64,000 bases of DNA from assembly GCA_023144035.1 (NCBI GenBank), contig JAGLGM010000001.1, positions 1,091 through 65,090 of the forward strand, given 5' to 3'. A program made the position numbers and the translations under genes. The DNA is from Candidatus Pacearchaeota archaeon. GTDB taxonomy: Archaea > Nanobdellota > Nanobdellia > Pacearchaeales > GW2011-AR1. Below are positions 1 to 32,900 of the stretch, one piece after another. The notes beneath the pieces are model-generated. The model was not told where the DNA came from. It did not search any database and worked only from the letters and a program-made list of their open reading frames with translations. Each line of letters begins with the position of its first letter. The first letter of the stretch is position 1.

Positions 1-696
1 TAAAGTATTATGTAATCGCTGAATCAATTTCCCATAGATTTTATTAAAAGGAGAATCTGGTTGTAACCCTAATAACTTAACCACCTCATCAAATTTATTT
101 TGGGTATTTGAATGATCTGCCCAGATTCTTAAATTATACAAATAAAAAAAAGGCGCAATAATATTTGAATCATCAAAAAGAATTTCTTTAAAAAATATTC
201 CTAATATTTTAATACCTCCAAGTTTTGAATCAAACTCTATCTGTTTAGAATCCAAATAAGAAATGAATTTATCCTTATTTATTGTCTCTATAAATTTCTC
301 ATGGAGGTCGCTGATTATTCTTTTAAAATCTTCCTTATTGTTAAATGTTATTCTTTTATATGCAGAACACATCTTTAATAAGTCATCAATCTGGACTAAA
401 TCAAAATTAAACATTTTAAAACCAAATTTTTCTTGAAATTCAATATTTATCTTGTTTAATAATAGAAATAACTTAACTTCTAAAATACTCTCTGTGAATA
501 TTGCATCCAACTGTCCTTTTTTAAAATCTGATTCTATATTTTTATCTGAAATTACATTATATGGTTTTAAAATTAATTTTAATTTGTCAGGTAATCTTTG
601 TAAGTCTCCCAACCAAAAAATTACATGGTCTTGGGAATTTATACCAAAAGGAATGGAATCATCTTCAAAAATTAAAGCCCCATATGTTTCACTCAT
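1..696 (-). CDS. hypothetical protein, N-terminal part (gene continues beyond window start)
   Basis: Manual translation of minus strand from ATG at 696 gives protein-like sequence MSETYGALIFEDDSIPFGINSQDHVIFWLGDLQRLPDKL... with no stop before position 1; the listed + ORF 452..712 lies antisense to it. Confidence 0.5.
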   Translation of the reverse strand, partial: MSETYGALIFEDDSIPFGINSQDHVIFWLGDLQRLPDKLKLILKPYNVISDKNIESDFKKGQLDAIFTESILEVKLFLLLNKINIEFQEKFGFKMFNFDLVQIDDLLKMCSAYKRITFNNKEDFKRIISDLHEKFIETINKDKFISYLDSKQIEFDSKLGGIKILGIFFKEILFDDSNIIAPFFYLYNLRIWADHSNTQNKFDEVVKLLGLQPDSPFNKIYGKLIQRLHNTL

Positions 697-845
697 AAAT
701 TCACAACTATAATTTTGGGAATAAATAAACGTAATTAGAGCTTCTTTTTCAAAATATACTGGCGTTAAAAAATTATCTCTTTGAGGGGAATAATCTTCTG
801 CGGAATCATAAATAAACTCAATTAACATTTTAATAAATATTATTT

Positions 846-1541
846 TTATTTCAATAAATCTGAAATTTTCTCTAATTCTTTTTTAATTGTGTAACATTCA
901 TGTTGGAATGATTGAATAAAATTCTTATTCAAAATTATTTCTTTTTCATCTTTTCCTTGTTTATATTTTATAAAATACACTCTTTTTTTGTTATCAAAAT
1001 CCCCTAAGATGTGTGCAACTTGATTTCTAATCTCTTGAATCCACTTAATTTTTTCATAAAAATTTTTACTAATATCTTTTAAATTCATTCTTACAAGCAC
1101 CTTCCTCTTTTGCTCAAAAGAAAAAAACTCTTTTCTTAAGACATCTTTCTCAAACTTTTCTTTTTTATCTTGATCTTCAAGATAATACTCTTTTATTATT
1201 TTATCCAAGAGATATTCTATTTCTATTGCTTCTCTTATGATTATTCCAAGAATAGTAGAATAGGTAGAAATTTCTTCAATAGCGATAGGAATTTGAGCCT
1301 TTTCAATCTCAAAAGAATCATAATCAATTTCATCATCTTCTCCATCATAAATAGAGGGAACCTCAAACAAACCATGAAATCCACATTCTCCACACTCATA
1401 GGGATGGTTAAATCCCGCGTCATAATCTGCCTGTTGCCCTTCAGTCATCTCTCCTTGATCTAATTCTTCCATCTGATTTTTACATTTTGGACAAATAATT
1501 ATATGTTCTCCTGGCAAAAATTCTTCTCCATCTCCCATCAA
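846..1541 (-). CDS. zinc-ribbon plus HEPN-like (Abi-type, IRNQVAH = Rx4H) domain protein
   Basis: N-terminal CPKC...CGEC ribbon, acidic linker, C-terminal helical domain with EIRNQVAH motif typical of AbiD/F-like HEPN domains. Confidence 0.55.
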   Translation of the reverse strand: MMGDGEEFLPGEHIIICPKCKNQMEELDQGEMTEGQQADYDAGFNHPYECGECGFHGLFEVPSIYDGEDDEIDYDSFEIEKAQIPIAIEEISTYSTILGIIIREAIEIEYLLDKIIKEYYLEDQDKKEKFEKDVLRKEFFSFEQKRKVLVRMNLKDISKNFYEKIKWIQEIRNQVAHILGDFDNKKRVYFIKYKQGKDEKEIILNKNFIQSFQHECYTIKKELEKISDLLK

Positions 1542-1609
1542 TCTCCCAAGAATTACTTGATTTTATAGTTTTCTCTTTAGAAACACCCACGCCAAAAGAG
1601 TAGGGAAAG

Positions 1610-2239
1610 TTATCCATACTTTTCATTGTAATATTTATCAAAATTTTCTCTTTCTTTTTCATTATCTTTATTTTTTAAAATAGGAATATATGATTCAAAG
1701 TCCTTTTTTATTTCTTTTAAAAATAAAGAAGGATCCACTGTAATCCATTCTTCCCCATCAATATTGAATGTAAAAAAAGGAACACTTAAACCATATCTTA
1801 GGAGAGCACCTTTCCTTGTCATTCCGTCATGGAAAAGTCCGTGTCTTATTTTATCAATGAAATATTTGAGAATACTTTCTTCAGTAGTGGGAAAAATTCT
1901 TTTTAATGCTCTTTCTAACATCTCTGTGCTTTCTCCTTGTGATACTCTCCCTTCCCTAAATTGTTGATTCCCTTCAAGATAATTCACACAAATCATTAAG
2001 ACAATAAACTCTGAATTTTTTTCTTTTGTTAATTTTTCTGCAAAATCAAGAAACCATCCTTTTACCCTGTCTTCATAGATTAAAATATTTGTTTCTATAT
2101 TTTCTTCCAAAATTTTATCAACTTCATAAGGTTCTTTTTCAGATTTTAAAGTAATAATTTTATTTGAGAATTCAGGACTTTTATAATAATTGGGACTAAG
2201 AGAACCAACGCCTTTCACAATCAGAATTTTATCTTCCAT
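1610..2239 (-). CDS. hypothetical protein, possible HEPN-like C-terminal half (KIRHGLFH)
   Basis: 209-aa ORF, start 2 nt after stop of upstream gene; R-x4-H motif in helical C-terminal half. Confidence 0.45.
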   Translation of the reverse strand: MEDKILIVKGVGSLSPNYYKSPEFSNKIITLKSEKEPYEVDKILEENIETNILIYEDRVKGWFLDFAEKLTKEKNSEFIVLMICVNYLEGNQQFREGRVSQGESTEMLERALKRIFPTTEESILKYFIDKIRHGLFHDGMTRKGALLRYGLSVPFFTFNIDGEEWITVDPSLFLKEIKKDFESYIPILKNKDNEKERENFDKYYNEKYG

Positions 2240-2241
2240 TT

Positions 2242-2706
2242 TTATTCCTCCTTCTCTAAATAACCACTAACTCTGTTTTGTTTAGATTCTAAAGCCTTTT
2301 TTAATAACTCAACCCCTTTATTATTCTTACACCAATTATGTTTTATTAGGGAAGAATTTGTTAACTCTCTTTGATTCTTTTCTTTATTAAAATTTGATTT
2401 TTGATAAAATTTTTCTGAGGGCATACAAAAGAAATCTCCAGTATTTATATTGTGACAAACTATAAAAAAATTAAAGTTTGGTTTGAAGTCTTTTATAAAA
2501 AAGACATCTTCATCACTTTGAATATCTCTACTTTTAACTTGAATTTCTACCAGTCCCCCTTCTCTATCTTTAATTATTAAATCTGTTCCAGTATCTACTA
2601 CTGGCACAAAGACATCAAAATCATTTTTTAACAACTCAGAAATAATGTGGTATTCTATTGCTTTACCTTTTTTTGTATTATTTTTTGTTATCATTTTTAA
2701 AACCAT
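2242..2706 (-). CDS. PD-(D/E)xK nuclease-fold protein (Hjc/restriction endonuclease-like)
   Basis: AIEYHIISE...VDTGTDLII...LVEIQVK matches E / D / ExK arrangement of PD-(D/E)xK nucleases. Confidence 0.5.
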   Translation of the reverse strand: MVLKMITKNNTKKGKAIEYHIISELLKNDFDVFVPVVDTGTDLIIKDREGGLVEIQVKSRDIQSDEDVFFIKDFKPNFNFFIVCHNINTGDFFCMPSEKFYQKSNFNKEKNQRELTNSSLIKHNWCKNNKGVELLKKALESKQNRVSGYLEKEE

Positions 2707-3382
2707 ATTTAATTAAGATAATTGTTCTTGAAAAAGCCCATAACAGAGCTCCTGTTGAAAAAAATATAAAAATAAATTTAATTATTTTGTGAAATAGATT
2801 GGATTCAAGATAAACTTCTCCTTGTGGAAATAAAACAATAGTTTGTTTTTTATCAATTCCTTCTTGAGTTATACAAGTATTCTCACTTATAATCCAAATA
2901 CAATCAGATTTATTCACTATTTTAGGTAAAAGTTCAATTTCAGGAATTTCAAGATCAAATTCATATCTTAAATTAAATGTTATCTTTGAACCTTCTTTTG
3001 AAATTTTAAAACACTTTTTTCCAACTATGTTATAATATTCCCCTTTATTATAACTTGCATAAAAGCTTTGATTTGTTAGAGATTTATCTTTCTCAAAACA
3101 AATTCTATCTCTAGCATTTCCCAAATAAATGATCTTCCAAAAAATACTATTAAAATCCCCTGAAACTACATCTTCTTGAGTTAAATCAAATGAACCAATA
3201 TTAAGATAAGTTGTATCATTTTCTTTAATTTTTTCAACATCGTTTGAATATATTTTCAAATCAGGGAGAATGAAAAAATTAATGTATAAAGCGCATAAAA
3301 AGATAATTAAAAATATTAATATTTTTGATTTTTTGTTCCAAAGTCTTTTGATTTTCTTCATACTCTTATAAGTTTTGGGCAA
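2678..3382 (-). CDS. membrane-anchored hypothetical protein (N- and C-terminal TM segments)
   Basis: 234-aa ORF, hydrophobic segments at both ends, overlaps start of downstream nuclease-like gene (operon). Confidence 0.45.
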   Translation of the reverse strand: MPKTYKSMKKIKRLWNKKSKILIFLIIFLCALYINFFILPDLKIYSNDVEKIKENDTTYLNIGSFDLTQEDVVSGDFNSIFWKIIYLGNARDRICFEKDKSLTNQSFYASYNKGEYYNIVGKKCFKISKEGSKITFNLRYEFDLEIPEIELLPKIVNKSDCIWIISENTCITQEGIDKKQTIVLFPQGEVYLESNLFHKIIKFIFIFFSTGALLWAFSRTIILIKYGFKNDNKK

Positions 3383-3460
3383 TTTTATAGTTTTCTATAT
3401 TAAATGAAATAATCTTTAGAATTGCATAAAATACTTAAGGGTTTTTATAAATAAAAAAAT

Positions 3461-4282
3461 ATGGAAGAGAAATATAAAATTTCAATGGAAGAATTAATTT
3501 TACTTTTACTTGCATTCTTTTTCTTTTTTGTAATGTTCATTTTTTTAATAAAAATGAATTTTTTAATTTATTTTTTCTTTTTTTTAGTCTCTGCCACACT
3601 TATTCTCCTTTTTCCTATATTTTTAAAAAATAAATTACATAGAAGGTTTTTACTAAAGTGTTCACTTTTTCCGATATTTTTTATTTTGATTTTGATCTTT
3701 GTCCTATTTTGTTTTAATAATTATGAAGAAAAGGGTCAAAATTTAATCCCTTACGAAATAGAATTTGATGCATACATTGTAAATAATTCTATTACTCCTG
3801 GAAAACTTAATATGGATTTATTAAAAGCAAACGAAATATGGAATGAGCAGAATATCTTTTTGAGAATTAAAGAAACATTTTATATTGAAGAAATAGATTT
3901 CCTTGAAGAATCTTTTTTATTAAATGTAGATGCTACTAATAAATCAGAATGTTTAAAATATAATGAGATCATTTCATTTTCTAATAAAAGTGAACTAAGA
4001 TTAATTTTGCTTGATTCGGAGTCTAATCACAGAGGAAGAGGATGTATTTGTGGATGTGATTCAATAGTTGTTGATATTAAAAAAGAATTATCTCTTGATT
4101 TGACTGGATGGAACATTGCACATGAATTTGGCCATCTTTTTGGGCAGTTTGATATAAAAAATAGGTATAATTTAATGTGTGATCAACTTAAAGTAATAAA
4201 ACCTTCTTTCTTAAATAAAAAACAAATTTACTCACTGACAAGAAATACTTTTATATCGTCTTCAGTTAAAATTTATAATTAA
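3461..4282 (+). CDS. membrane-anchored putative zinc metallopeptidase (HExxH)
   Basis: Multi-TM N-terminus; IAHEFGHLFG contains HExxH zinc-binding motif. Confidence 0.5.
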   Translation: MEEKYKISMEELILLLLAFFFFFVMFIFLIKMNFLIYFFFFLVSATLILLFPIFLKNKLHRRFLLKCSLFPIFFILILIFVLFCFNNYEEKGQNLIPYEIEFDAYIVNNSITPGKLNMDLLKANEIWNEQNIFLRIKETFYIEEIDFLEESFLLNVDATNKSECLKYNEIISFSNKSELRLILLDSESNHRGRGCICGCDSIVVDIKKELSLDLTGWNIAHEFGHLFGQFDIKNRYNLMCDQLKVIKPSFLNKKQIYSLTRNTFISSSVKIYN

Positions 4283-4298
4283 TAAATTTTATTAAGAT

Positions 4299-4511
4299 TT
4301 ATTTTAATTTAGTCCTTGCATTTACTTTAACAAATCTTAAGTCTTTTTCTAAATAAATTATCCTATCTCCAGTTGTAAGGTCGGGTTTTATACCTCTTTG
4401 AGAAGAAGAATGCTCACATTCCTTAAATTCTTGTAAGTTTTTAAGTTCAAATAAATTTTTAAGACATTTATTTATTTTTGATATAAGTTTTTTATGTTGT
4501 TGCTTATTCAT
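4299..4511 (-). CDS. small hypothetical protein
   Basis: 70-aa ORF 43 nt downstream of serine recombinase gene. Confidence 0.3.
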   Translation of the reverse strand: MNKQQHKKLISKINKCLKNLFELKNLQEFKECEHSSSQRGIKPDLTTGDRIIYLEKDLRFVKVNARTKLK

Positions 4512-4554
4512 TTTGTTTTTAATACCTCTATATTCTAAATAAAAACGTCCGTTT

Positions 4555-5112
4555 TTAATTAATTTGTGATTCTTGTTTTTTACCTTTAAAACCTACATTT
4601 TTTAGCATACCCCTTTTTAATCCAATGTCCGACCTTCTTTTACGTGATTTTTTATCTTTTCCTCTCTTTCCAATTTTATGTTTATTTTTACTTGCTTGAA
4701 GACCTGCTTTTGTTCTTTCAGATATTTTCTCACGTTCTATTTTTGCAATTGTTGAAATGATTGATAAAACAACATCTTTGAATTGCCCAACACTCTTAAA
4801 ATATTGTTCTTGATAACTTTCCCATTCAATTCCTAAATTTTCAAGTTCTTTTAATTTTTGTAATGTGAATAAAGTTCCTGCCCTTGAAAATCTTGAGAGA
4901 TCCCAGAATAAAACCAAATCAAACAATCTTTTATGAGCATCTTTAAACATCTTATCATAAGAAGGTCTGTTTGTCTCTTTTCCTGAGATCACATCTATAT
5001 ATTCCCTAAAAATCTCATAATTGCATTTTTTACAATATTCTCTAAGTTGAAGTAACTGGTTGTTTACTTCTTGCTTATCTGTGCTTACCCTAACATATAT
5101 TCCTATTTTCAT
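4555..5112 (-). CDS. serine recombinase (resolvase/invertase family), small form
   Basis: N-terminal IGIYVRVSTDKQ catalytic motif of serine recombinases; basic C-terminal tail without obvious HTH. Confidence 0.75.
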   Translation of the reverse strand: MKIGIYVRVSTDKQEVNNQLLQLREYCKKCNYEIFREYIDVISGKETNRPSYDKMFKDAHKRLFDLVLFWDLSRFSRAGTLFTLQKLKELENLGIEWESYQEQYFKSVGQFKDVVLSIISTIAKIEREKISERTKAGLQASKNKHKIGKRGKDKKSRKRRSDIGLKRGMLKNVGFKGKKQESQIN

Positions 5113-5188
5113 TTTTATGTGTTATTTTTAGTCTCCCACTTTATTAAACCTCTTTACATACTTATTGAAAGTGTCTTTGTATGTCCTA

Positions 5189-5527
5189 TTATAATAGCTT
5201 GATATAATCTCTAAATTGATTTTGATATTTATTCTTTATTATATGTTTCATGCTTACAATCTTTTTCATATACATTATATAAATAACACACTTTATTTTA
5301 TCACTTCCTAATTTGTTACAATTTAGAACACTTCTAACTTCTTTATAGATGTCTGTTATTATTGCTTCTCTCTTTGGCTCCCCAGTTAAAAACAAATAAA
5401 TAATATCAAAGATCAATCTATCAAGGGTTGTCAAAACCATGCTATTCCCTTTTCTTAATTTAATTCTTTTATAGGATTGTGGCCTGATTAATTTGTAGAA
5501 TTCATCTACTATGATATAATCCCTCAT
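5189..5527 (-). CDS. hypothetical protein
   Basis: 112-aa ORF, start/stop coupled with upstream ORF. Confidence 0.35.
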   Translation of the reverse strand: MRDYIIVDEFYKLIRPQSYKRIKLRKGNSMVLTTLDRLIFDIIYLFLTGEPKREAIITDIYKEVRSVLNCNKLGSDKIKCVIYIMYMKKIVSMKHIIKNKYQNQFRDYIKLL

Positions 5528-5976
5528 TATAAAAATTCAGAAGGAGTATACTCTTCTTCCTCCCCTTCATTATCTTTAACGTCTTCTTCATTGTCTTCGT
5601 TTCCAGAAACCAATTCAGAGTTATATTTTTCTTTATTTTCTTCATCTAAGTTTTCAATCTTCTTTGAAATGTGTGATTCTATTTCCTTTATTCCTTTTTT
5701 AATTGCTTCATCAATATCTTTTAAGAAATCTTTTTTTGTTTTATCTATTTGTTTTTTTAATTTTTCAATATCTTTTTTGAAAGCTTTTACTTCGGAATTT
5801 TTTTCATTAACTTTTTTATTTTCCAAACCTTTAAGATTTCTTGATATTTTTTGGATCTCTTTTAATTTATCTTGTGTGATAAATTCTCCATTAAGTGTTT
5901 TAAGAAATCCTAAGAGATCTCTTTCTTCAACCAGTTTCTTTTCCCCATGCCATATAAAGTTTTTTTCAAATACCAT
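5527..5976 (-). CDS. hypothetical coiled-coil/acidic protein
   Basis: 149-aa ORF, K/E-rich heptad-like sequence, acidic C-terminus. Confidence 0.4.
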   Translation of the reverse strand: MVFEKNFIWHGEKKLVEERDLLGFLKTLNGEFITQDKLKEIQKISRNLKGLENKKVNEKNSEVKAFKKDIEKLKKQIDKTKKDFLKDIDEAIKKGIKEIESHISKKIENLDEENKEKYNSELVSGNEDNEEDVKDNEGEEEEYTPSEFL

Positions 5977-6026
5977 TTTATTGATTATAAAAAGCCACAG
6001 AAAAATTAATTGTGGCCAATCTCAAA

Positions 6027-6212
6027 TTATGCAGATTTTTTTGAATGCGCATCATCAATAACAATTTCTGCAACTCTTTCAGCAAAGTTGAGGATGAATT
6101 CGTGATGTTTTAGAAAATCAAATAAACTAAACCCTCCTTCTGTTTCTTCTTTCAAAGTAAACCATAAAGCATTTTCTATTTGTTTTTCACTAATTATTTC
6201 TTTTGATGTCAT
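6027..6212 (-). CDS. small hypothetical protein
   Basis: 61-aa ORF. Confidence 0.25.
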   Translation of the reverse strand: MTSKEIISEKQIENALWFTLKEETEGGFSLFDFLKHHEFILNFAERVAEIVIDDAHSKKSA

Positions 6213-6338
6213 TATTTTTTAACCTCCTTTTTAACTTTGTTAAAAATTCTGTGAATCTATTTAACATGCAATTTTTTTGATAAATTTCTTTAACTTGTTC
6301 TAATTTATTCATTTCACAAAATAATTTTGATTTATTTT

Positions 6339-6557
6339 TCATGGTTTATTGAAAAATGATTTAGTTACGTTAAAAATATTTTTTGTAAATGCCTGAGTTT
6401 GATTAGAATAATCTTTCATAATTGTTGTGTTTGTTGCTTTTTCAATTAAGAAAACTGAGGTTGGTTTTCCTAAAACAAATATATCAAAAATCCACCATAG
6501 GATATATAGTATTATTAAAATAACTGCTACTTGAACGATTCCTTTTTTATTTTTCAT
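6339..6557 (-). CDS. small membrane protein
   Basis: 72-aa ORF with one TM helix. Confidence 0.3.
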   Translation of the reverse strand: MKNKKGIVQVAVILIILYILWWIFDIFVLGKPTSVFLIEKATNTTIMKDYSNQTQAFTKNIFNVTKSFFNKP

Positions 6558-8307
6558 CTTTTTTAGAACCCTCTAATTTAATTTCATCGTCACATTCGTC
6601 ACCTTTCGTCACATTCGTCACACTTTTGATTTTTTTCTTTATTAATTCGTCACCTTTCGTCACACTTTTAGATGGATTCGTCACAAGGATTTCTTTATTT
6701 AAGAGTAATTGTGATGATTGTGATGATTGTGATAAATTATTTACTAAATTTGGGCAGATAGGGTTAATAATTGATTCAAAAATTATAGAATTGATAATAT
6801 ATTTTGCTCCATCTCTATCTTTTGGTTCTTTATATTCTCTAAAACCAAGATTATCTATTTTAGTTGAAAATCCTTTTTCTCTAGAAACATTTTCAGAACC
6901 ATACAAATCAATATATTTCTTTCTAACTTCTTTAGGCCTAATAATATCCGTGTCTTGAATAATATCTTTTATAATTTTCAGAATTTTATAATCAAAACTA
7001 TCTTCTGGAATAAAATCTTCTCTCCTTTGTCCAGACATTTTTTCAGCAAAAGTAGAAATTTCTAAAAATAATTCATCATCAATTAATTTTGATATTGCTA
7101 AAAGGGGTTTCCAAATTTGTAAATCTCTTTTTTTTAATTTTAAATCAGAATAAAAGGATTCATTTCTATAATTTATTTCAATATTTTTCCAATACTTTAA
7201 AGAAAATAAATAAAGGTAATCTCTAATCATAGACCATTCTATATCTGAATCTACAATTTCCATTTCCCCTCTTGAATCTGTATTTGGACTTCTTGTACAT
7301 ATTTGAGTTATACATCTACTTTCAGTTGCTCCAAATAAACCCTTAATAGAAGAAATCATACAAGGAGAAAAAGTATTATAATAAATTGTCTTAAATCTGT
7401 TATTAATTTTTTCTACCCTCGGAACAGCTGAACCTTTCTTATAACTCCCATTAATTAATTCTACCCTGTTATCTGGCTCCATTTGTCCTTGATTCCATCT
7501 AAATAATTTCTCTGCTTCATCAAAATATTTAGTTGGTCTTTTCTCATGAGATTCTCTAAATAATGTTGCTTCACTTGGATTAATCATTATTCCAGTAGAA
7601 TTAAAAGAAAGATTTTTGCTAATTTCCATTCTTTTACTCTTTGCTGTTTCTTGCATACCTCTTTTCTCAGAAATAGGAAAAGCATCAAATAATTGATAAA
7701 AATAAGTTCCAATATCCCAAAGACTATTTATTTTATTCCAAATTGGGTTGTGTTCAAAAATATATTTGCCATATTGCTTTTCAACTTTATCAAAAAGTTC
7801 TTTAGGTTCTAAATCTGGAGTTTCACCTTCTCCTTTCAAAAATTCATTTATAGATTCTAAACTCCATCTCAAATTAATATTGTCTGGAACAACATCAAAT
7901 TTTATTTTATGTTCTTGCTCCATCTCTTTAGTAACTTCTAAAATATTTCTATCTGAAGAAATAATTACTGGTTTCCAAATTTGTTCTTTTGAAACAACTT
8001 CTCCAACTTTATTAGTCACAGGTTCATTTTTAGGCAAATAAATTCCATATCCAAAAAGATTCTCATTAAATTTTGTTTGAGTGAATGTTCTTGTTTTATG
8101 TACATCATCTTCATTAAAAATATAATTAATCATAATTTTCTTCTTTCTATCTAAATCTAAAGGAGAAACTTTTACATCCACTTGTCCAATTTTAACTTCG
8201 TCTTTAATTCCTTTAAGAACTATTGAACCATCATTCTTAATTTCAGAATGTTTCTCTAAGTCTTCTTTCAACATTTTAGAATATTTCCTTTTATCTTTTT
8301 TATTCAT
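6547..8307 (-). CDS. large hypothetical protein of integrated element (possible replication-associated)
   Basis: 586-aa ORF; no recognisable catalytic motif; 3' end carries phased GTGACGA repeats. Confidence 0.55.
   Translation of the reverse strand: MNKKDKRKYSKMLKEDLEKHSEIKNDGSIVLKGIKDEVKIGQVDVKVSPLDLDRKKKIMINYIFNEDDVHKTRTFTQTKFNENLFGYGIYLPKNEPVTNKVGEVVSKEQIWKPVIISSDRNILEVTKEMEQEHKIKFDVVPDNINLRWSLESINEFLKGEGETPDLEPKELFDKVEKQYGKYIFEHNPIWNKINSLWDIGTYFYQLFDAFPISEKRGMQETAKSKRMEISKNLSFNSTGIMINPSEATLFRESHEKRPTKYFDEAEKLFRWNQGQMEPDNRVELINGSYKKGSAVPRVEKINNRFKTIYYNTFSPCMISSIKGLFGATESRCITQICTRSPNTDSRGEMEIVDSDIEWSMIRDYLYLFSLKYWKNIEINYRNESFYSDLKLKKRDLQIWKPLLAISKLIDDELFLEISTFAEKMSGQRREDFIPEDSFDYKILKIIKDIIQDTDIIRPKEVRKKYIDLYGSENVSREKGFSTKIDNLGFREYKEPKDRDGAKYIINSIIFESIINPICPNLVNNLSQSSQSSQLLLNKEILVTNPSKSVTKGDELIKKKIKSVTNVTKGDECDDEIKLEGSKKDEK
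6584..6730. repeat. seven GTGACGA/TCGTCAC copies at ~10-bp phasing plus 3x GTGATGATT
   Basis: TCGTCAC at ~6587, 6597, 6607, 6617, 6657, 6667, 6678; tgtgatgattgtgatgattgtgata at ~6705-6730; inside the C-terminal coding region of 6547..8307. Confidence 0.6.
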
Positions 8308-8642
8308 CCTTTCTTTTCTCCAAATTTATGCTTTTTAGAAGCTAAAATAGATAGTTTACCCCCAATATCTAAAGATGTTAAGAGCTTGTGTAAGAGTTCT
8401 TGTTGCTTATTTATAGATTCAATTAGGTTATTTATGTCTTGAGCATTGAAATCCTTTATTTTTAAAGAAACATAATTTTTTAAAAGACATTCTAAGTTTT
8501 CAAAAAACCAAAAAGGCCGATCATCTTTTAAGAGAATCCATTGAAATTTATCTGCACTAAAAGAGTATCGTTGATCTAATTTAATAACCATTTGAAGAAA
8601 CCTCCTGAATAGAGGAAATTGCATCTTTAGACAATGAAACAC
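8304..8642 (-). CDS. hypothetical protein
   Basis: 112-aa ORF overlapping neighbour. Confidence 0.3.
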   Translation of the reverse strand: MFHCLKMQFPLFRRFLQMVIKLDQRYSFSADKFQWILLKDDRPFWFFENLECLLKNYVSLKIKDFNAQDINNLIESINKQQELLHKLLTSLDIGGKLSILASKKHKFGEKKG

Positions 8643-8766
8643 GATTGCCCCGAATATCTAAGAGATCCAAACTATTTTCATCTGCATCTAAAACCTCTCC
8701 AATGTAATAGTAATCGTTTTTAAGAATTATTTTAATTCTAAGTCCAATATAATTAATTAAGTTCAT
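8581..8766 (-). CDS. small protein with Sm-like sequence pattern
   Basis: IKIILKNDYYYIGEVLDADENSLDLLDIRGNRVSLSKDAISSI resembles Sm1/Sm2 motif spacing; weak. Confidence 0.25.
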   Translation of the reverse strand: MNLINYIGLRIKIILKNDYYYIGEVLDADENSLDLLDIRGNRVSLSKDAISSIQEVSSNGY

Positions 8767-8887
8767 TTTTATTAAATTTTAAGATTTATCCACCTCTTTA
8801 TGAATTTTAATTTTTTCTCTGGCTTCTTTTGAATCTTTTATGAATCTATTTGCTTTTTCCTTGAGATCTTCTATATTTAGAAAAGGA

Positions 8888-9031
8888 TTATTTTGATTTT
8901 CCATTTTTCTCTAAAAACTCCTTTATTGCTATTTTTATTACATTAGATCTAGAGCGGGATTCATTTTTGGCAATTTTATCTAATCTTTTTAAAAATTCCT
9001 TATCTATTTGGAAAGAGACTAAATTATTCAT
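8888..9031 (-). CDS. ribbon-helix-helix (CopG/Arc-like) DNA-binding protein, 47 aa
   Basis: Manually translated MNNLVSFQIDKEFLKRLDKIAKNESRSRSNVIKIAIKEFLEKNGKSK; beta-strand then two helices typical of RHH; below ORF-track length cutoff. Confidence 0.5.
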   Translation of the reverse strand: MNNLVSFQIDKEFLKRLDKIAKNESRSRSNVIKIAIKEFLEKNGKSK

Positions 9032-9102
9032 AGTTCATAATATTTAGTTAAGTTTATAAACTATTATTTATTTAATAAATAATAGAAATTAAATAACAGT
9101 TT

Positions 9103-9885
9103 TTGGTTAAAATGGACAAAAAAATCACAGGACAAAACCTCATAGTAGCAAACAAAAACAAAGAAATTGTTGAACATCTTTTTACCAATTATCATAGTAG
9201 ATCAGAGATATATGCAAAGATAGACCCCAAAGGGTATGACCAATATAAAAAAAGCTTAATAATTAGAGACATCCAAGGAGGAATTAAACCAAAGCCAAGA
9301 AAAGCAAAACATTATTCTAAAACACCCATCAACAATAAAATTGTTGAGGCTTTCAAAATATTTTATGCAGAAGGATTTCTAATACAACAAAAACCAATCC
9401 AATATAGGAAACAACCCAGTAAAACAGGAAAATTATACTCTTACCCTATTAAAAGATATAAATTAAATCCCAATTTTTTCTTTGATTATGTTAAAAAAGA
9501 GTTAAAAGGAAATTATTTTACTAAAAAAGAAATACTTGAAATAAGATTTTATCTTGATAATCCCAATATTAGAAAAATGATAGTTAAGAATTATAATAAA
9601 CAAAATAATTTAATAGAAAAAATAAAATATTTTTTACTTGATTTTTACGTGATTTCTGAAACCGATTTTTATTTTAGATTTTTTTCTGAAACAATCACTA
9701 ATTATAAAGAATTATTAAAATTAAATGAAAAAGGGAAAAATTCAAATATTTTATGGAGATTAAGTGATTATGAAATAGGAGGAGAAAAAGAACAAACCAA
9801 AATAAAAAAAGATATAGGGAAAAAAATTAAACTTTTATTTGGATTTGATGGAAAATTAACAAAAGAATTTTCTTCTTTATTCTAA
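9103..9885 (+). CDS. hypothetical protein
   Basis: 260-aa ORF converging on integrase gene. Confidence 0.45.
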   Translation: MVKMDKKITGQNLIVANKNKEIVEHLFTNYHSRSEIYAKIDPKGYDQYKKSLIIRDIQGGIKPKPRKAKHYSKTPINNKIVEAFKIFYAEGFLIQQKPIQYRKQPSKTGKLYSYPIKRYKLNPNFFFDYVKKELKGNYFTKKEILEIRFYLDNPNIRKMIVKNYNKQNNLIEKIKYFLLDFYVISETDFYFRFFSETITNYKELLKLNEKGKNSNILWRLSDYEIGGEKEQTKIKKDIGKKIKLLFGFDGKLTKEFSSLF

Positions 9886-11109
9886 TTTAATCTTAACTTC
9901 TTTATTCATTTTGAATCCTTCTTCAAGAACTTTTTTTAACAACTCTTTTACTTGATCTAAATCTTCTTTTTGTCTTTCCATTCTCTGTCCAACAAGTTTT
10001 TCTCTTTGTTTACTTTCTTCTAATTCATCTTTAACATCTTCAAGATTGTTATTATAATGAACTTTTTTAGCCCTTTTACGATTAATTGCAAGATAATTTA
10101 TATAAGATTCTAACCATTTGCTTTGAGGGGAATGTCCAAGTCTAAGATTTATGTCTTCAACATGCCATCCTTGAGAAAATAAATAACAGGCCATACCAGA
10201 TCTCAAATCTTTCCAAGAAGGTTTCTCTCCTTCGGGTTCACATTTAACTCCTGCTCTTTTAACAACACTATCAAATATTTGCAAAGCTTGTCTGTATTTA
10301 AAACTAAAAATAAAATCATCTTCTTTAAAGGGTACTGCTTTTCTTCTAATCATTCCTTTTTCATCCCTATATTCTGTTTCTTTTCCATATTTAAAAAGTG
10401 CATCTAAAAATCTTAATGTTTCAGGATAAATAGTTGGTTCGCTTCTTGTTTGTCTACTTCTTTTTAGATTTTCTTTAGGAAGATAAACTAAATATTCTTC
10501 TTGTTTTGTATCTCTATTTAATTGTCTCTTAAAATGTTTAACTCTCAATTCTAAAAGAGCAGTAATATTTTCACCAAGATCCCAAGCTAACCAAAATAAA
10601 GCATAATGTTGTGGCTTATGAAGAAAGTTTAACATTCTTTTGAATCCTTCTTCATTAATAAACCGAACTTGTTTTTTTCTTTTATCTGTGAAAAACTCTA
10701 AAGCATTTTCTACAACATCACTTAATCCTGCAAGTTTAAATGGTTTGGACTTGAAGACTTTATTATAATAACCTCTTCTATCTTCAAATCTCCTTCCAGA
10801 ACGATTTTTAATTTTACCATCTTCTAAATCATTATAGACTTGTTTAATTTCTTTTTCAGTTAATTTATTCCAGGCTTTATTTTTAAACCAATTATTCACA
10901 TTTCTAAATTTATTGATATAACCATAAAGAGTTTTATATGAAGACTCATCAATCTTAGGGAGACCATTTTGCCTTTTTAGTTTCTCTTCTTCCCATGCAA
11001 AAAATTTGTTAAACAAATCACGATTATATTTTATAATAGAATTATCTTCTAAAAGAGCTTTTTTTGTTTTCTTATATCTATCTTCAAAACTCATAAAATC
11101 ACTACACAA
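9877..11109 (-). CDS. tyrosine recombinase / phage-type integrase
   Basis: C-terminal boxes DLRSGMACYLFSQG and RLGHSPQSKWLESYINYL (LGH...Y) ; gene abuts 3' end of tRNA-Asp. Confidence 0.8.
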   Translation of the reverse strand: MCSDFMSFEDRYKKTKKALLEDNSIIKYNRDLFNKFFAWEEEKLKRQNGLPKIDESSYKTLYGYINKFRNVNNWFKNKAWNKLTEKEIKQVYNDLEDGKIKNRSGRRFEDRRGYYNKVFKSKPFKLAGLSDVVENALEFFTDKRKKQVRFINEEGFKRMLNFLHKPQHYALFWLAWDLGENITALLELRVKHFKRQLNRDTKQEEYLVYLPKENLKRSRQTRSEPTIYPETLRFLDALFKYGKETEYRDEKGMIRRKAVPFKEDDFIFSFKYRQALQIFDSVVKRAGVKCEPEGEKPSWKDLRSGMACYLFSQGWHVEDINLRLGHSPQSKWLESYINYLAINRKRAKKVHYNNNLEDVKDELEESKQREKLVGQRMERQKEDLDQVKELLKKVLEEGFKMNKEVKIKLE

Positions 11110-11151
11110 AAGGTATTTTTAAACTCTCCTATTGTGCAGTGTCTTACGCCA

Positions 11152-11223
11152 CGCCCACGCCGGGAATCGAACCCGGGTTGCATCCGCGACAGGGATGAGT
11201 CATAGCCGTTAGACCACGTAGGC
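11152..11223 (-). tRNA. tRNA-Asp (anticodon GUC)
   Basis: Hand-folded cloverleaf: acceptor GCCUACG/CGUGGGC, anticodon stem CAUCC/GGAUG with loop CUGUCGC, T-arm CCGGG-UUCGAUU-CCCGG, discriminator G, no encoded CCA. Confidence 0.8.
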
Positions 11224-11278
11224 TTGTTTTCTTTGCTTAAGTGGTGTCAGCCAAAATCTCATAAAGATGTTCTGAGCA

Positions 11279-11291
11279 AGACCACGTAGGC
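11279..11291 (-). repeat. 13-bp direct copy of tRNA-Asp 5' end (GCCTACGTGGTCT) 55 bp upstream of the tRNA
   Basis: agaccacgtaggc occurs at 11211..11223 (tRNA 5' end) and again at 11279..11291; TATA-like TTATATA lies ~25 bp upstream of the distal copy. Confidence 0.6.
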
Positions 11292-11345: not shown

Positions 11346-11600
11346 TTAAATAAAAACTAAGTAAAAGTTTTCTCTTTTTCCAATTTTTGTCACTAAAAAT
11401 ACTTCTTTTACTTTTTGCAATTGAATTCTATAATTTCCTGTTCTTATTCTGAACTCCTGATTTTTATTTTTTAATTTTATTACATCTACTTTTCCACCTT
11501 CTTTAAATTTTCTTAATGTAAAAAGAATTTTCTGTTGTATTCTAGCATTTAATTTTTCCAATTGTTTTTTCGAATTCTTAGAAAATTCTATGTTAACCAT
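11346..11600 (-). CDS. relE: RelE/ParE-family toxin
   Basis: 84 aa; EFRIRTGNYRIQL...VTKIGKR pattern of RelE/ParE fold; ATGA-type overlap with upstream antitoxin. Confidence 0.65.
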   Translation of the reverse strand: MVNIEFSKNSKKQLEKLNARIQQKILFTLRKFKEGGKVDVIKLKNKNQEFRIRTGNYRIQLQKVKEVFLVTKIGKRENFYLVFI

Positions 11601-11836
11601 TAGAAACCAAGTTCTTTTTCAACTTCTTCAAGAGTAAAAGTCTCTCCCCTTTCAAATTCTTTTCTTGAAATTTCCATATCTTTTTTTGCCTCTTTTGATA
11701 ATTCTAAATGAGGTTCAATAAAATCCCAAAGAATATCTTCATAACTATCTCCTTCTTCTTTAAATTTCTTTAAAGCATTTAATAAATCAGAACTAATTCT
11801 AATTGATGTTTGATTTTGCATATTATATGTATGCAT
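11600..11836 (-). CDS. antitoxin (RHH / VapB-like PF02697-type, SYEDIL motif)
   Basis: 78 aa; SIRISSDLLNALKK...GDSYEDILWDF; immediately upstream of and overlapping RelE-like gene. Confidence 0.55.
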   Translation of the reverse strand: MHTYNMQNQTSIRISSDLLNALKKFKEEGDSYEDILWDFIEPHLELSKEAKKDMEISRKEFERGETFTLEEVEKELGF

Positions 11837-19676: not shown

Positions 19677-20252
19677 ATGAAAAAGAGGAATTCAAAAAAG
19701 AATAAAACAATAACATTTATAATTGTATTAATTTTAATCTTAATTGCAGTATTTGGAGTTGTTAAATTAACTGGAAATTCTGTAGAAAATAAAATGACAA
19801 AAGTAACACTTGAAACAAATCACGGAAACATTGTAATTAATTTATATTCTGATATGCCAATAACAACAGGAAACTTTGAAAAACTTGTTAAAGATGGTTT
19901 TTATGACAATGTTATATTTCACAGAATAATTGATGGTTTTATGCTTCAAGGTGGAGACCCAACTGGAACAGGAGCAGGAGGACCAGGATATAATATTGAA
20001 GATGAATTTACTCATGCAGGTGGAAACAAAAATGACCATGGAACAATATCAATGGCAAATGCAGGACCAAACACTGGAGGCAGTCAATTTTTTATTAATT
20101 TAGTAGACAATAATTTCTTGGATACAAAACACCCAGTATTTGGAAAAGTTGTAGAAGGAATGGATGTTGTTGATGCAATTGCAAAAGTTCCAAAAAATGC
20201 TCAAGACAAACCTTTAGAAGATGTTATAATTATCAAAGCTATTGTTAACTAA
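19677..20252 (+). CDS. cyclophilin-type peptidyl-prolyl cis-trans isomerase with N-terminal TM anchor
   Basis: FHRIIDGFMLQGGDP...GGSQFFINL signature of cyclophilins. Confidence 0.85.
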   Translation: MKKRNSKKNKTITFIIVLILILIAVFGVVKLTGNSVENKMTKVTLETNHGNIVINLYSDMPITTGNFEKLVKDGFYDNVIFHRIIDGFMLQGGDPTGTGAGGPGYNIEDEFTHAGGNKNDHGTISMANAGPNTGGSQFFINLVDNNFLDTKHPVFGKVVEGMDVVDAIAKVPKNAQDKPLEDVIIIKAIVN

Positions 20253-20253
20253 T
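20205..20253. repeat. 49-bp direct repeat copy 1 (3' end of cyclophilin gene)
   Basis: gacaaacctttagaagatgttataattatcaaagctattgttaactaat identical to 21333..21381; 20-bp subcopy at 20654..20673. Confidence 0.85.
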
Positions 20254-21332: not shown

Positions 21333-21381
21333 GACAAACCTTTAGAAGATGTTATAATTATCAAAGCTATTGTTAACTAAT
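21333..21381. repeat. 49-bp direct repeat copy 2
   Basis: identical to 20205..20253. Confidence 0.85.
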
Positions 21382-22236: not shown

Positions 22237-23286
22237 ATGATAAGCTTAAAAAAATATGTAAACAAAAGCACATTTCCAGTATCACTATTAAACATAAATA
22301 AAATAGTTGGGAAAAACCAAAATAGCTACATCTTCTCAATTGCAAACATTGCAAATAAAATTAAAGGTAATCAAAAGATATGGGGAATCAATGCTTTTAA
22401 TTATGCTAAAGAAGTTGGAGAAACTCAAGTAGCAGGAGCTAATGCTTTTAATTATGCTAAAGAAGTTGGAGAAATTCAATGGGCACTATTTAATGGAGCA
22501 AATATTGCTAAAGAAGTTAAAGAAAATCAAATAGCAGGAGCTAATGTTTTTAATTATGCTGAAGAAGTTGGAGAAATTCAATGGGCACTATTTAATGGAG
22601 CAAATATTGCAAATAAAATTAAAGACAATCAAAAGACATGGGGAATCAATGCTTTTAATTATGCTAAAGAAGTTGGAAGGGATCAAGGAGCAGGAGCTAA
22701 TGTTTTTAATTATGCTGAAGAAGTTGGAAGGGATCAAGGAGCAGTAATCTTTACATTACTTAATTATGCTAAAGAAGTTGGAGAAAATCAAGGGTCAGTC
22801 TTTAATGCTTTTAATTATGCTGAAGAAGTTGGAAGGGATCAAGGAGCAGTAATTAATGGAGCAAATATTGCTAAAGAAGTTGGAAGAGATCAAGGAGCAG
22901 TAATTAATGGAGCAAATATTGCTAAAGAAGTTGGAAGAGATCAAGGGCCAGTAATCTTTACATTACTTAATTATGCTAATAAAGCAAAAAAGCAAAAAAA
23001 TGCTTTAGTTAATATTACTAAGTCTACAGGAACAAAACAAAAAGGAGTAATTAATTATTCTCCTTTAACGGGAATTAACTTATGGCAAGATCTTCCATCT
23101 AAAATAAATTCTGCAAAAAAGAAATTTGAAAAAAAATATTTAACTCTTGAAGATAATATCAAAGAAGAAGTAATAAATGATTTAGCAAATTCTAAACAAG
23201 GTTTAATAAAATCTCTTTTTAATTACAATACAAAAAGAAATTTAGTAAAAAGAGAAGCAAGAAAATATTTGATGAACAATAAATAA
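22237..23286 (+). CDS. tandem-repeat protein (~18-20-aa units GANxxNYAKEVG...)
   Basis: About 12 units of 54-60 bp, some adjacent units identical over 54 bp (22852..22959). Confidence 0.5.
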   Translation: MISLKKYVNKSTFPVSLLNINKIVGKNQNSYIFSIANIANKIKGNQKIWGINAFNYAKEVGETQVAGANAFNYAKEVGEIQWALFNGANIAKEVKENQIAGANVFNYAEEVGEIQWALFNGANIANKIKDNQKTWGINAFNYAKEVGRDQGAGANVFNYAEEVGRDQGAVIFTLLNYAKEVGENQGSVFNAFNYAEEVGRDQGAVINGANIAKEVGRDQGAVINGANIAKEVGRDQGPVIFTLLNYANKAKKQKNALVNITKSTGTKQKGVINYSPLTGINLWQDLPSKINSAKKKFEKKYLTLEDNIKEEVINDLANSKQGLIKSLFNYNTKRNLVKREARKYLMNNK

Positions 23287-29910: not shown

Positions 29911-32900
29911 ATGAGCTATAAAGGGGTTATAAAATTTAGGAGAGTGAAAATCAAAAAAGATCCTCTTCCAAAAGAAAAAATCATATTCTCTATTTTTTTA
30001 GGACTTTTTTTCTTTATTCTTATGGTATCTTTTTTTAATAATGCAAATCTTTGGAATACAGGAAGTGTAATTTCTGAAAATACAGGAGAATCAAAAAATA
30101 CAGCTATTATAAATTTTGTAATTGAATTAACAGATGCTAAGCATTTAGATTTTAATAAAAATTTTATATCAAATATTTATGAAGAAGTGAGAGAATTAGA
30201 CAATATTTGGAGCAAACAAATTTCTTCTGAAGAATATATTAGAGTAACTTTTGAAGAAAACTTAACTTCAAAAAAAGATATTACAATTTATCCAAGAATA
30301 ATTTCAGGAGATCCAAGAATTGAAGTTTATGAAACAAATGAAACACAATTAATTGCTGAATTTACAAATCTTATTTCAAACGAATATAACAAGGTTTTCT
30401 TGACAAAACTTATAGGAAAGCAAGATACATTTGATTTATTGATTTTAGGAGGAAGTTTAATCATTGATCACATTATTGATCCTGAAGAAATATTAACTCC
30501 TCTTTTACATGCAAACAGCCAATTAAATTCAGTGGCTCTAGATTCTGCCCAAATAACTGCAATTACATCTGATGATGCAAGTGATATTACAATTGGCAAA
30601 GCAATAATCTTAACAGTAGAAATGAGTGAATTGTCAGGAACAATAGATACTCTAACTGACGCAAACTGTAGCTTAGTTTATTCAACAGCAACAAGCTATC
30701 CTGCTGACTCTATAACTTTTGAAGTTTATGATAGTTTTGGAGGAAACCAAGTAGCTATTTCAACTCTTCCAGCTTCTGATGGAGTTGATTCATTAGTTCA
30801 TCTTTTAGATTTAGAAACAACAGGTTTGGCAGCCTCAGAAGTTACTACAATGGTAGTTTATGTAACAAATACTATTGCAGCAAAAGGTTATAATCTTTTA
30901 GTAGATCAAATATATTGTACTATTGATTACACAGAAGCAGTACCAAACACTCCTCCAACACTTTCAGGACTTCCAGAGGTCAATGATGATGAGGATTTTG
31001 GAACAAATAATTCAGTAATGGATTTATGGGATTATGCTTCTGATGCTGAAGATGCTGATAGTGTATTAACATATGGGATTAATAGTGAAAGCGAAACCTC
31101 AATTGTAGATTGTGATATCTATGATTCTCATTATATTACCTGTACTTCTCAAGCAAATGCTTCAGGTTACAGTGATGTGAATGTTTCTGTAACAGATACA
31201 GGAGGATTAAAAGATAGTGATGTATTTAGATTTACAGTTAATACTATCAATGATGATCCTTGGTCAGATTCAATTGCAAATCCTGCATCAATAAATGAAG
31301 ATTCAGGACTTAATGACAATATTGTAAGTATAACTACAATAAACACTGCATTTAGAGATGTTGAAGAGGACCAATCTCCAACAAGTTGTACTATTGCTTC
31401 TGAAACAGACACGACTGCAGTTGATTGTGAAGTAGATGGAAGCTATAATGTAGATTGTACTACTCAGGCAAATCAGTCAGGAAGCAATATAGTAACATTA
31501 AACTGTTGTGATTCTGGAAGTTCATGCACTGATATGGATACTTTTACAGTAACAGTAGATGCTGTAAATGACAATCCTTGGAATGATGGGTTGTCTAATC
31601 CAGGCAATGTTAATGAAGATTCAGGACTTGCTGATAATATAATTACAAAAGCAACACTAGACAACACATTCAGAGATGTTGAAGAGGACCAATCTCCAAC
31701 AAGTTATGCTATTCAAAGCCAGACAGGAAGTTCAATAATAAATTGTGCATTAGATGGAAGCAATAATATAGACTGCACTACTCAAGCAAATCAGTCAGGA
31801 AGTAATATAGTAACAGTAAGATTATCTGACAGCGGAACATTATATACAGAAATGACATTCACAATCACAGTAGATTCTATAAATGACCAACCATGGGTTG
31901 ACGGCTTATCAGACCCAACAAATTTAAGTTATAATTCTGGATTAAATCAAGATGTTATTTCCTCAACAGAAATTGATGATAATTTTAGAGATGTAGAAAA
32001 TGACCAAAACCCATCAAGCGTGGTTATATTATCTCAAACCCATACTGAAATAGTTAATTGTGAATTAGATGGACATGCTTTAGATTGTACAACTCAAACA
32101 AACCAGCATGGAATCTCTACTGTTACACTAAATTACACCGACGCTGAAGGATTAAGCATAACAGATTCCATGGATATAAGCATAACACCAGACACAACAA
32201 CACCAACAATCCAAGTTCAATCTCCGACAAATAATTCTTATACAGTATCTACAATTTATTTCAATGCTACTGCGAGTGAAACTATAGATACATGGATTGT
32301 AAATTATAATGGAACAAATATAACCCACACTATCAATACTTCACTAGAAGTTGAAGATGGAAACCATAACCTATTGTTGTATGCTAATGATTCTGCTAAT
32401 AATTTTGGATTAAATGATACAATTTACTTTACTGTAGATACTCAAGAACCAAGTTTAAGCAATGAATTTTCTAATGAAACAGAAATATCACAAAATGAAT
32501 TGTTCTGCCTAAATATAACTGTAACAGATTCTCTAAATTCAATTGATACTGTCTATGCAGAAGTTTGGGATACTAGTTCTTGGGCAAATTATTCAATGTC
32601 CGAAGATGGAACATCTTGTAGTGGAACTTCTATTGATGGAATTTATGGTGTAGAAATAATTGGAAGCAATGTAGGATTATGGAATTATAGTAAGGTTTAT
32701 GCAAATGATAGCTTAAATAATTTAAACAGTTATGATTTTTCAGATTTAACAATAAATGTAACTGCTCCTGCAGATTCTACTTATCCTCAATTTGCAAATT
32801 TCCAAACATATCCTTCAAATAATTCAGAATATTCTCTAAATTATAATTATCAATTTAATTCAACAATAACTTTTACTAATTCAACAGTTTATCTAAGTTT

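Follow-up and report, generated by a model that had tools for sequence, protein, structure and literature searches.

The window analysed here is a 64,000-nt stretch of a metagenome-assembled genome of Candidatus Pacearchaeota (DPANN) with about 25% G+C. The source metagenomes are SAMN18200493, SAMN18200494, SAMN18200496 and SRR13892602. Little is known of the plasmids and viruses of DPANN archaea, which are host-dependent and have tiny genomes. Near the start of the window, a tRNA-Asp(GUC) gene (11152..11223, minus strand) is followed on the same strand by genes for a tyrosine-recombinase-type integrase, a small ribbon-helix-helix (RHH) protein, a 586-aa protein with a short repeat array at the 3' end of its gene and a small serine recombinase, with a set of cargo genes beyond them. 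The original prediction described this region as an integrative element at tRNA-Asp whose left border probably lies beyond the window start, and all the open reading frames (ORFs) that it named exist in the window. Our analysis bears this description out: with good though not full confidence, we regard the region as an 11,228-bp plasmid-like integrative element.

The borders of the element were defined on a longer contig. The 586-aa protein is identical to NCBI KAI04_00075, and a look-up of this protein led to the ENA scaffold L001. Over 18,307 nt, this scaffold does not differ from the window at any base, and it reaches 3,454 nt past window position 1 (L001 position = 18308 - window position). 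ARAGORN and Rfam (RF00005, 56.1 bits) both identify tRNA-Asp(GTC), the integration target, as the sole tRNA of the region. The last 11 nt of this tRNA and the following 2 nt form the 13-nt attL core CGGCGTGGGCGTG (window 11150..11162, minus strand; L001 7146-7158), and a copy identical at 13 of 13 positions, the attR core, is present at L001 18374-18386, that is, at window positions -66 to -78, outside the window. A comparison of the tRNA (+15 nt) with the 14.5 kb downstream of it on L001 gave no exact direct repeat longer than CGGCGTGGGCGTG. Base composition predicts 9.5e-7 copies of this G+C-rich 13-mer in that stretch, and a 13-nt match of any kind arose in only 2 of 2000 shuffles. The core-to-core distance of 11,228 bp gives the length of the element. 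Thus, the adjacent tyrosine integrase and the repeat of the tRNA end agree with the proposed integration at tRNA-Asp, and the left border does lie 66-78 nt beyond the window start.

Within the window, no second copy of the tRNA 3' half was found with up to 3 mismatches, besides the tRNA itself, as had been reported; it was the suggested search of the flanking contig that yielded the exact 13-nt copy on L001. Because the distal core is located beyond the window start, the element spans everything from the integrase through window position 1 and takes in the nuclease and HEPN-like genes. The inclusion of this operon, which had been put forward as a consequence of a distant border, is confirmed by the position of the PD-(D/E)XK gene and two genes with Rx4H motifs inside the core-to-core span. 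The last gene of the element encodes a 284-aa protein with no family match (1..828, minus strand, running 26 nt past the window start; L001 17480-18334). Its stop codon lies about 40 nt before attR, and the next gene encodes a DUF5667 protein. From the cores, the junction predicted for attP is ACGCATCCCT-CGGCGTGGGCGTG-GCGTAAGACACTGC and that for attB is GGTTCGATTCC-CGGCGTGGGCGTG-ATGGGAGATAATTTT.

The integrase gene adjoins the tRNA. It had been placed at 9877..11109, 43 bp from the tRNA; this ORF exists, but the start is most likely the ATG at 11094, which lies 57 nt downstream of the tRNA end and gives the 405-aa protein (9877..11094, minus strand) called on three public contigs. The protein matches phrog_1 (PHROG integrase family 1) with E 2.8e-13, falls below the cut-off for Pfam PF00589 (E 0.004) and is labelled a site-specific integrase at NCBI. 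PDB sequence searches with the integrase and with its profile gave nothing significant. Its AlphaFold (AF2) model (pLDDT 86) has the two-domain fold of tyrosine recombinases, for which Foldseek returned Cre, XerA, IntI4 and lambda Int (E ~1e-6) as well as XerH, all at probability 1.0.

The active site of this integrase is unusual. Across 37 diverse homologues, R298 (Arg-II), H321 (His), Y331 (Tyr) and Y334 are invariant, as is the segment W171-D-x-G-E175-N176. Asn176 occupies the Arg-I position of box I (G-x-R-x-x-E), and the canonical first arginine is missing. The register of this alignment is supported by hhalign against a canonical sister family, the PF00589-positive integrases of the L004 type (97.4%), in which Asn176 stands opposite the invariant Arg-I R177 of G-x-R-P-x-E. 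Weaker alignments to XerD and to the lone L004 integrase give the same register, and R298, H321 and Y331 align with the matching residues of the sister family and of XerD. Hence, an invariant Glu-Asn stands where canonical tyrosine recombinases have Leu-Arg, whereas the L004 sister family keeps the Arg. K211 is also invariant and is located in the beta2-beta3 hairpin, the site of the catalytic Lys, in a loop where the alignment is gapped. By these alignments, the integrases form a family without canonical Arg-I, in which the hairpin invariants K211, R212 and R217 are candidate substitutes. CTnDOT-type and IntDes recombinases work with the canonical first arginine of the RKHRH pentad absent or shifted (PMC8138268).

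The 586-aa protein (Rep; 6547..8307, minus strand) is present as predicted, and the label "unknown" that it had been given can be refined to predicted replicative helicase. Rep matched nothing in Pfam, PHROGs, NCBIfam or PADLOC, and PDB sequence searches with the protein and with its profile gave nothing significant. Its family is very large, with 3,038 representatives at a cut-off of E<=1e-3 and 1,559 at one of E<=1e-10. Many of these homologues carry a fused N-terminal PrimPol (PF09250), zf-CHC2 (PF01807) or Toprim domain, and the window Rep has no primase domain. Walker A (G217-x5-K223-S224) and Walker B (D263-E264) show little or no variation among 52 homologues. The P-loop of the window Rep has the variant sequence GMQETAKS, which is common to its closest relatives and is therefore not a sign of decay. 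The AF2 model (pLDDT 80, with a winged-helix region at residues about 440-520 and a disordered C-terminal 60 aa) was matched by Foldseek in the PDB to MCM subunits (E 2e-6), SCCmec Cch (5dgk), the NrS-1 helicase domain, PriRep1 and the African swine fever virus primase-helicase, and among the BFVD viral models to primase-helicases (E 4.5e-25). Differences in domain arrangement keep the TM-scores low (0.3-0.56). The only catalogued sequence relative is the helicase region of pXZ1 RepA (E 5e-7, 27% identity over 217 aa). Judged from its predicted MCM/Cch/primase-helicase-like fold and from the fusions, Rep is a putative replicative helicase of the primase-helicase family.

Three small genes on the minus strand precede rep. 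The stop of the nearest (8304..8591), which encodes a 95-aa protein, the length also found on public contigs, overlaps the rep start, and its product matches phrog_154, "replication initiation protein", with E 1.1e-6. The next (8581..8766) encodes the 61-aa protein that the original prediction called Sm-like; the ORF exists and travels with Rep, with homologues upstream of Rep in 8 related loci (tblastn) and 38% identity to p60 of the related locus L006, but its LSM/LSM14 matches are weak (E 0.04-0.05), and it is possibly Sm-like. The third (8888..9031) encodes a 47-aa protein correctly recognised as CopG-like: it matches PF01402 above the cut-off (E 2.5e-8) and the PHROG CopG/Arc-like repressors (E 2e-8), and a homologue occupies the equivalent position in L006. 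By analogy, this RHH protein upstream of rep is a probable regulator of transcription or copy number.

The 3' end of rep contains the iteron-like array that had been noted at this gene. Seven copies of GTGACGA, in two clusters of three and four around an A-rich spacer, lie within 98 nt (6587..6684, minus strand), and no copy occurs elsewhere in the 64 kb. The spacings are 21, 10, 32, 9, 10 and 9 nt, and TGTGACGA occurs five times, compared with 0.09 expected. The copies encode the disordered C-terminal tail of Rep, four in codon phase 0 and three in phase 1, and the DNA motif is kept in the rep tails of L004 and L006 while the peptide differs. Such arrays are conserved in the Rep family: among roughly 70 related loci, most have 3-7 copies of one motif at the 3' end of rep and almost none in the rest of the locus, and the motif is lineage-specific (TGACGAA/T, AGTGTAG, TGAAGCA, TGGTGAT or GGGACGA). 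The use of two codon phases, the retention of the DNA motif while the peptide changes and the lineage-specific motifs together argue for selection at the DNA level. From its sequence, the GTGACGA array is most likely an iteron replication origin, and the change of motif by lineage suggests iterons that co-evolve with their initiator. A second short repeat, CATCACAAT, was detected by TRF in three copies just upstream of the iterons (6708..6733, minus strand); it encodes SSQSSQ and is also present in L004 and L006.

Taken together, these features suggest how the element may enter, replicate in and persist in its host. The outcome of integration is seen in the sequence, and the reaction would be a site-specific recombination between attP and the 3' end of tRNA-Asp(GUC), carried out by the adjacent tyrosine recombinase, with exchange within the 13-bp identity CGGCGTGGGCGTG and the duplicated core marking the far end. 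Since an identical 3' end comes with the element, the tRNA is not disrupted, and the integrase gene remains whole after integration because attP lies upstream of the gene and not inside it. Once excised, the circle would be replicated by the Rep ring helicase, as its fold, the fusions of its homologues and the repeats indicate. The seven GTGACGA iterons at the 3' end of rep would serve as recognition sites for Rep, which would open the A-rich stretch that separates the two clusters. Since the window Rep has no primase domain, it would depend on a host primase or on an unrecognised primase of the element. The CopG-type RHH protein would regulate transcription or copy number in the manner of pRN-type plasmids; the serine recombinase, by analogy, would resolve multimers; and the nuclease and HEPN-like cargo may act in defence or addiction.

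We compared the locus with related ones to examine occupancy of the site. A scan of species-representative genomes showed that the 3' half of the tRNA-Asp is identical in 13 other DPANN genomes, all of different species. A SerRS-containing host neighbourhood lies upstream of the tRNA in five of them (L008, L009, L011, L013 and L018). An integrase follows the tRNA in only one, L008; 11 have none and continue into unrelated sequence, and the L009 locus ends 3 nt past the tRNA. The empty tRNA-Asp site that the original prediction had looked to in relatives is therefore matched by the 11 genomes without an integrase, but these are different species, and the exact attB was not recovered. In L008 (JABHWZ010000004.1, 1..4436), an integrase of 84% identity stands at tRNA-Asp with the same 40-nt junction sequence, and the genes downstream differ, encoding small membrane proteins and a GIY-YIG-like protein. 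An integrase this similar with other cargo indicates that the integrase/att module is exchanged between elements. L012 has a degenerate copy of the tRNA 3' end, GGTTCTGGGCGCGGGCG, at position 5457, about 80 nt downstream of tRNA-Asp, and the sequence after it is the one that directly follows the tRNA in L007 (600); this looks like a small integration scar.

Elements of the Rep family also adjoin other tRNA genes, namely tRNA-Cys (18-nt repeat, 13.9 kb) and tRNA-His (13-nt repeat, 13.2 kb). In L075 and L076, the Rep gene is found about 3 kb downstream of a tRNA-Asp gene, and L071 and L088/L090 are flanked by 12-nt repeats. In the latter pair, CTCGGCAGGGGCGT flanks a small Rep-family element of about 5.7 kb (L088 6934, 12605 and 14656; L090 115 and 5762) and, from its sequence, resembles the 3' terminus of a tRNA missed by ARAGORN. 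The third copy in L088, degenerate and 2 kb further on, suggests serial integration.

Other relatives may represent free forms. In the closest one, L004/L005, whose Rep is 77% identical, CGGCGTGGGCGT lies 57 nt upstream of the integrase with no tRNA there, and the gene order is circularly permuted with respect to the integrated form; this layout suggests attP on an unintegrated element. Terminal overlaps are absent from L004 and L006, and the L005 tail and L004 head do not overlap in the available sequence, so that a circle of about 13.4 kb is possible, unproven. L059 (Ga0315273_10040788, 6,237 nt) carries a PrimPol-Rep fusion with four copies of GGGACGA at the rep 3' end, and its 86-nt terminal direct repeat indicates a circle of about 6.15 kb. 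Common to the relatives are the integrase, Rep, RHH or small ORFs, and the resolvase, while the remaining cargo is swapped between elements.

Several observations weigh against reading the region as a plasmid-like integrative element. Neither an excised circle of the window element nor a same-species empty site was found, and all public contigs that carry the element hold it in integrated form; attL/attP-type junctions are likewise absent from IMG/VR. An 11,453-nt Logan contig considered as an excised circle was rejected, as it is the integrated form, running from tRNA +1 to 151 nt past attR. At 13 bp, the att identity is short. The iterons lie within coding sequence and could, less probably, reflect a repeat at the peptide level. 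Further difficulties concern specific alternatives.

The foremost alternative, which we consider unlikely, is that the region is a provirus of an undescribed type of temperate archaeal virus, with some of the unassigned small or membrane proteins serving as virion components. No function could be assigned to about two thirds of the ORFs, and several encode membrane proteins, so that a virus with unrecognised capsid genes is conceivable; the small capsid proteins of archaeal spindle-shaped and pleomorphic viruses are often missed by profiles, and the Rep fold matches proteins of Sulfolobus spindle-shaped viruses and TSPV1 in BFVD. However, no capsid, portal, terminase or packaging ATPase gene was detected in the element with Pfam or PHROGs, and a scan of IMG/VR for Rep relatives found none. 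Moreover, what the relatives share is the integrase, Rep, RHH or small ORFs and resolvase rather than the swapped cargo, and the circular relative is very small (6.2 kb).

Ranking next, and improbable in our judgement, is a fixed, immobile remnant whose integrase is inactive for lack of Arg-I and whose genes form a domesticated island. The identity of the element in every sample examined counts in its favour. So do the Asn at the Arg-I position, the failure to find a circular form and a base composition like that of the host (25.9% GC compared with 27.2% in the flanks, hence no contrast), which also weigh against a mobile element. Yet a large and diverse family keeps this Asn, the adjacent Glu and several arginines of the hairpin without exception, which indicates selection on a working site, and the CTnDOT-type integrases cited above offer a functional precedent. 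Furthermore, all ORFs are intact, the att cores are identical, and the 84%-identical integrase at the same tRNA with different cargo implies recent independent mobility.

The last alternative arises from a degenerate third core, CGGCGTTTGGGCGT, about 3.3 kb past attR (L001 21729-21742, equivalent to L003 13206-13219). It lies upstream of a third DUF5667 paralogue and shares 75% similarity with attR in the right flank; the history of the integration site is therefore not simple, which also counts against the reading we prefer. The core may have arisen by segmental duplication or be left from an older integration. A larger or composite unit, in which attR is internal to a tandem array or to an island that ends at the third core and includes the two DUF5667 paralogues and MazE-type pair of the interval, would accord with the flank similarity, with the toxin-antitoxin-like nature of that pair and with the three core copies in L088, typical of serial integration at one tRNA, but is the least probable of the three, since the third core carries 2 inserted nt while attL and attR agree at 13 of 13 positions, the similarity extends into DUF5667 coding sequence as fits a segmental duplication of host paralogues, and the interval holds no recombinase or replication gene.

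A plasmid-like integrative element bounded by the two identical cores is of a kind well known in other archaea, where integrative pRN-type plasmids and integrated elements encoding MCM occur, and is found here in a DPANN host. The integrative pRN-type plasmids of Sulfolobus (of the pXZ1 and pSSVi/pSSVx kind) are likewise small, plasmid-like and inserted in tRNA genes, and the helicase region of pXZ1 RepA is detectably similar to Rep. In pRN1, a CopG-type RHH gene lies upstream of a large RepA with a helicase domain, the same order as here. The present element differs in its DPANN host, in the presence of a serine resolvase and in a Rep without PrimPol, although many homologues have one; a homologue of PlrA was not seen in the element. 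The SSV-type integrases of pXZ1 are split by integration, whereas the integrase gene here is not.

Elements of the TKV, pTN3 and pT26-2 kinds in Thermococcales, Methanococcales and Thaumarchaeota, which encode an MCM or a primase-helicase, combine tRNA targeting, short direct repeats and variable cargo with an intact integrase gene beside attL and a replicative ring helicase as main replication protein; all these traits recur here, with Rep as the predicted helicase. In comparison with those elements, the present one is smaller, its integrase belongs to another family (with Asn at Arg-I), its iterons lie inside rep, and its Rep matches MCM in predicted fold but not in Pfam.

Similarities to bacterial systems are more partial. 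Foldseek aligns the Rep model with SCCmec Cch (5dgk) over its full length at low TM-scores (0.36-0.40). In the layout of staphylococcal pathogenicity islands (SaPIs), an AT-rich stretch lies between two clusters of short iterons on the 3' side of rep, and the arrangement here is similar, except that the SCCmec and SaPI elements are bacterial and the iterons here lie inside coding sequence. Ccr-type serine recombinases share the catalytic domain, but the enzyme here is a small resolvase-type protein and not a large Ccr integrase. The absence of the canonical first Arg (here Asn176) is shared with IntDOT and IntDes, to which no close relationship is detectable; the family described here is archaeal, has its own N-terminal domain and has invariant R212 and R217 as candidates for the substitute residues.

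The Rep family is absent from the curated libraries searched, and the integrase family is marginally detected in them. The most original points of the locus are an iteron origin nested in rep with lineage-specific motifs and an integrase family without Arg-I. More speculatively, and with well under even confidence, we can envisage a widespread, undescribed class of DPANN replicons that unites a Rep carrying its own co-evolving iteron origin with an integrase whose active site has been remodelled (Asn at Arg-I, with a hairpin Arg substituting); in such a scheme, the 68-nt insertion described below might be a recombination footprint at the 5' acceptor strand.

Current concepts are not changed by these results, as tRNA-integrating plasmid-like elements with ring helicases are known in other archaea. 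The practical interest lies in a cleanly bounded 11.2-kb element that offers a candidate origin, a helicase, an integrase and a 13-bp target, the minimal parts for a shuttle vector or an integration tool in these uncultivated archaea. In addition, the large Rep helicase family, with thousands of sequences and no Pfam model, and the integrase family without Arg-I provide markers of mobile DNA in metagenomes, which would aid the annotation of many short "unknown" contigs.

The remaining genes of the element include the 185-aa serine recombinase (4555..5112, minus strand), which had been described as resolvase-type without an obvious helix-turn-helix (HTH). This description stands: PF00239 matches residues 5-145 with E 2.4e-31 and Ser10 lies in YVRVST, while no HTH family was matched and the NCBIfam matches are confined to the catalytic domain. 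Residues 146-185 form a 40-aa Lys/Arg-rich tail (KRGKDKKSRKRR...) in place of the HTH. The L006 homologue is similarly HTH-less and ends in RGGRPKK, which resembles an AT-hook; the basic tail may thus be a minor-groove-binding substitute for the HTH in an AT-rich genome. The homologue in L004 extends further at its C terminus, where an HTH may be located. In 12 related loci, a resolvase gene is found downstream of Rep and is therefore part of the family core; by analogy, its role is most likely multimer resolution.

Between the integrase and the RHH gene, a 257-aa protein with no Pfam or NCBIfam match is encoded on the plus strand (9112..9885); L004 and L006 have a gene of similar size at the same position and strand, with no BLASTP similarity. 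Five small ORFs (72, 50, 61, 149 and 112 aa; 5189..6557, minus strand) gave no significant family matches, and the 72-aa product looks membrane-spanning and the 149-aa product coiled-coil. The stretch 2242..4511 holds, on mixed strands, a 70-aa ORF, 273-aa and 227-aa membrane proteins and a nuclease, of which only the nuclease has a family match: it is of the PD-(D/E)XK type (2242..2694; PF11645 PDDEXK_5, E 4.5e-8). The 273-aa protein (3461..4282, plus strand) has several N-terminal hydrophobic segments and an HEFGH motif, and may be a membrane zinc metalloprotease.

The two genes at 846..2239 (minus strand) encode proteins of 209 aa and 230 aa whose translations contain the Rx4H motifs RHGLFH and RNQVAH, respectively. 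The motifs are in keeping with the HEPN label that the genes had been given, and the sole profile match is a weak one (PADLOC RTasHEPN, E 0.003), with none in Pfam. Both are possible HEPN-type nucleases that would form a defence or addiction module with the nuclease gene. PADLOC, NCBIfam and PHROGs gave no confident defence or virion assignment for the cargo. Rfam and RNA folding over the whole element and the tRNA leader returned only the tRNA (leader fold z = -0.46), and a sigma-70 promoter scan was set aside because it does not apply to archaea.

Two insertions lie on the other side of the tRNA. Directly before the tRNA is a 68-nt insertion (11224..11291, minus strand) that comprises 55 unique nt and a second copy of the first 13 nt of the tRNA, GCCTACGTGGTCT; it is not part of the element. 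An archaeal TATA box, TTTAAAAA, is spaced for the upstream copy of GCCTACGTGGTCT, as in related genomes without the insertion, and this spacing indicates that the 55 nt and the 13-nt duplication now separate the promoter from the tRNA. The insertion resembles either a target-site duplication or an att scar of the 5' acceptor strand. The 55-nt insert has no relatives in IMG/VR and no significant structure. The contigs L003 and L102, which start exactly at tRNA +1, may reflect polymorphism of the insertion or, equally well, co-occurring relatives that share the tRNA sequence.

Upstream of the tRNA promoter, between it and a DUF5676 gene, lies a pair of genes on the minus strand (11346..11836) for an 84-aa ParE-like toxin and a 78-aa VapB/RHH-like antitoxin. 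The pair is absent from L011 and L018, where DUF5676 lies about 50-100 nt upstream of the tRNA, and is therefore a local insertion.

Elsewhere in the window, repeats are prominent. Exact 49-nt copies, 1128 nt apart, are present at 20205-20253 and 21333-21381, and a third copy with 65% identity is found at 20625-20673; all three end in AAAGCTATTGTTAACTAAT. About a dozen tandem units with a period of 51/54 nt (families D1/D2) occupy 22346..23004, probably a repetitive coding region. Finally, 31200..40100 contains many dispersed repeats of 100-230 nt (families D3, D4, D7-D12, D17 and D19), which suggest very large repetitive genes for surface or adhesin-like proteins.

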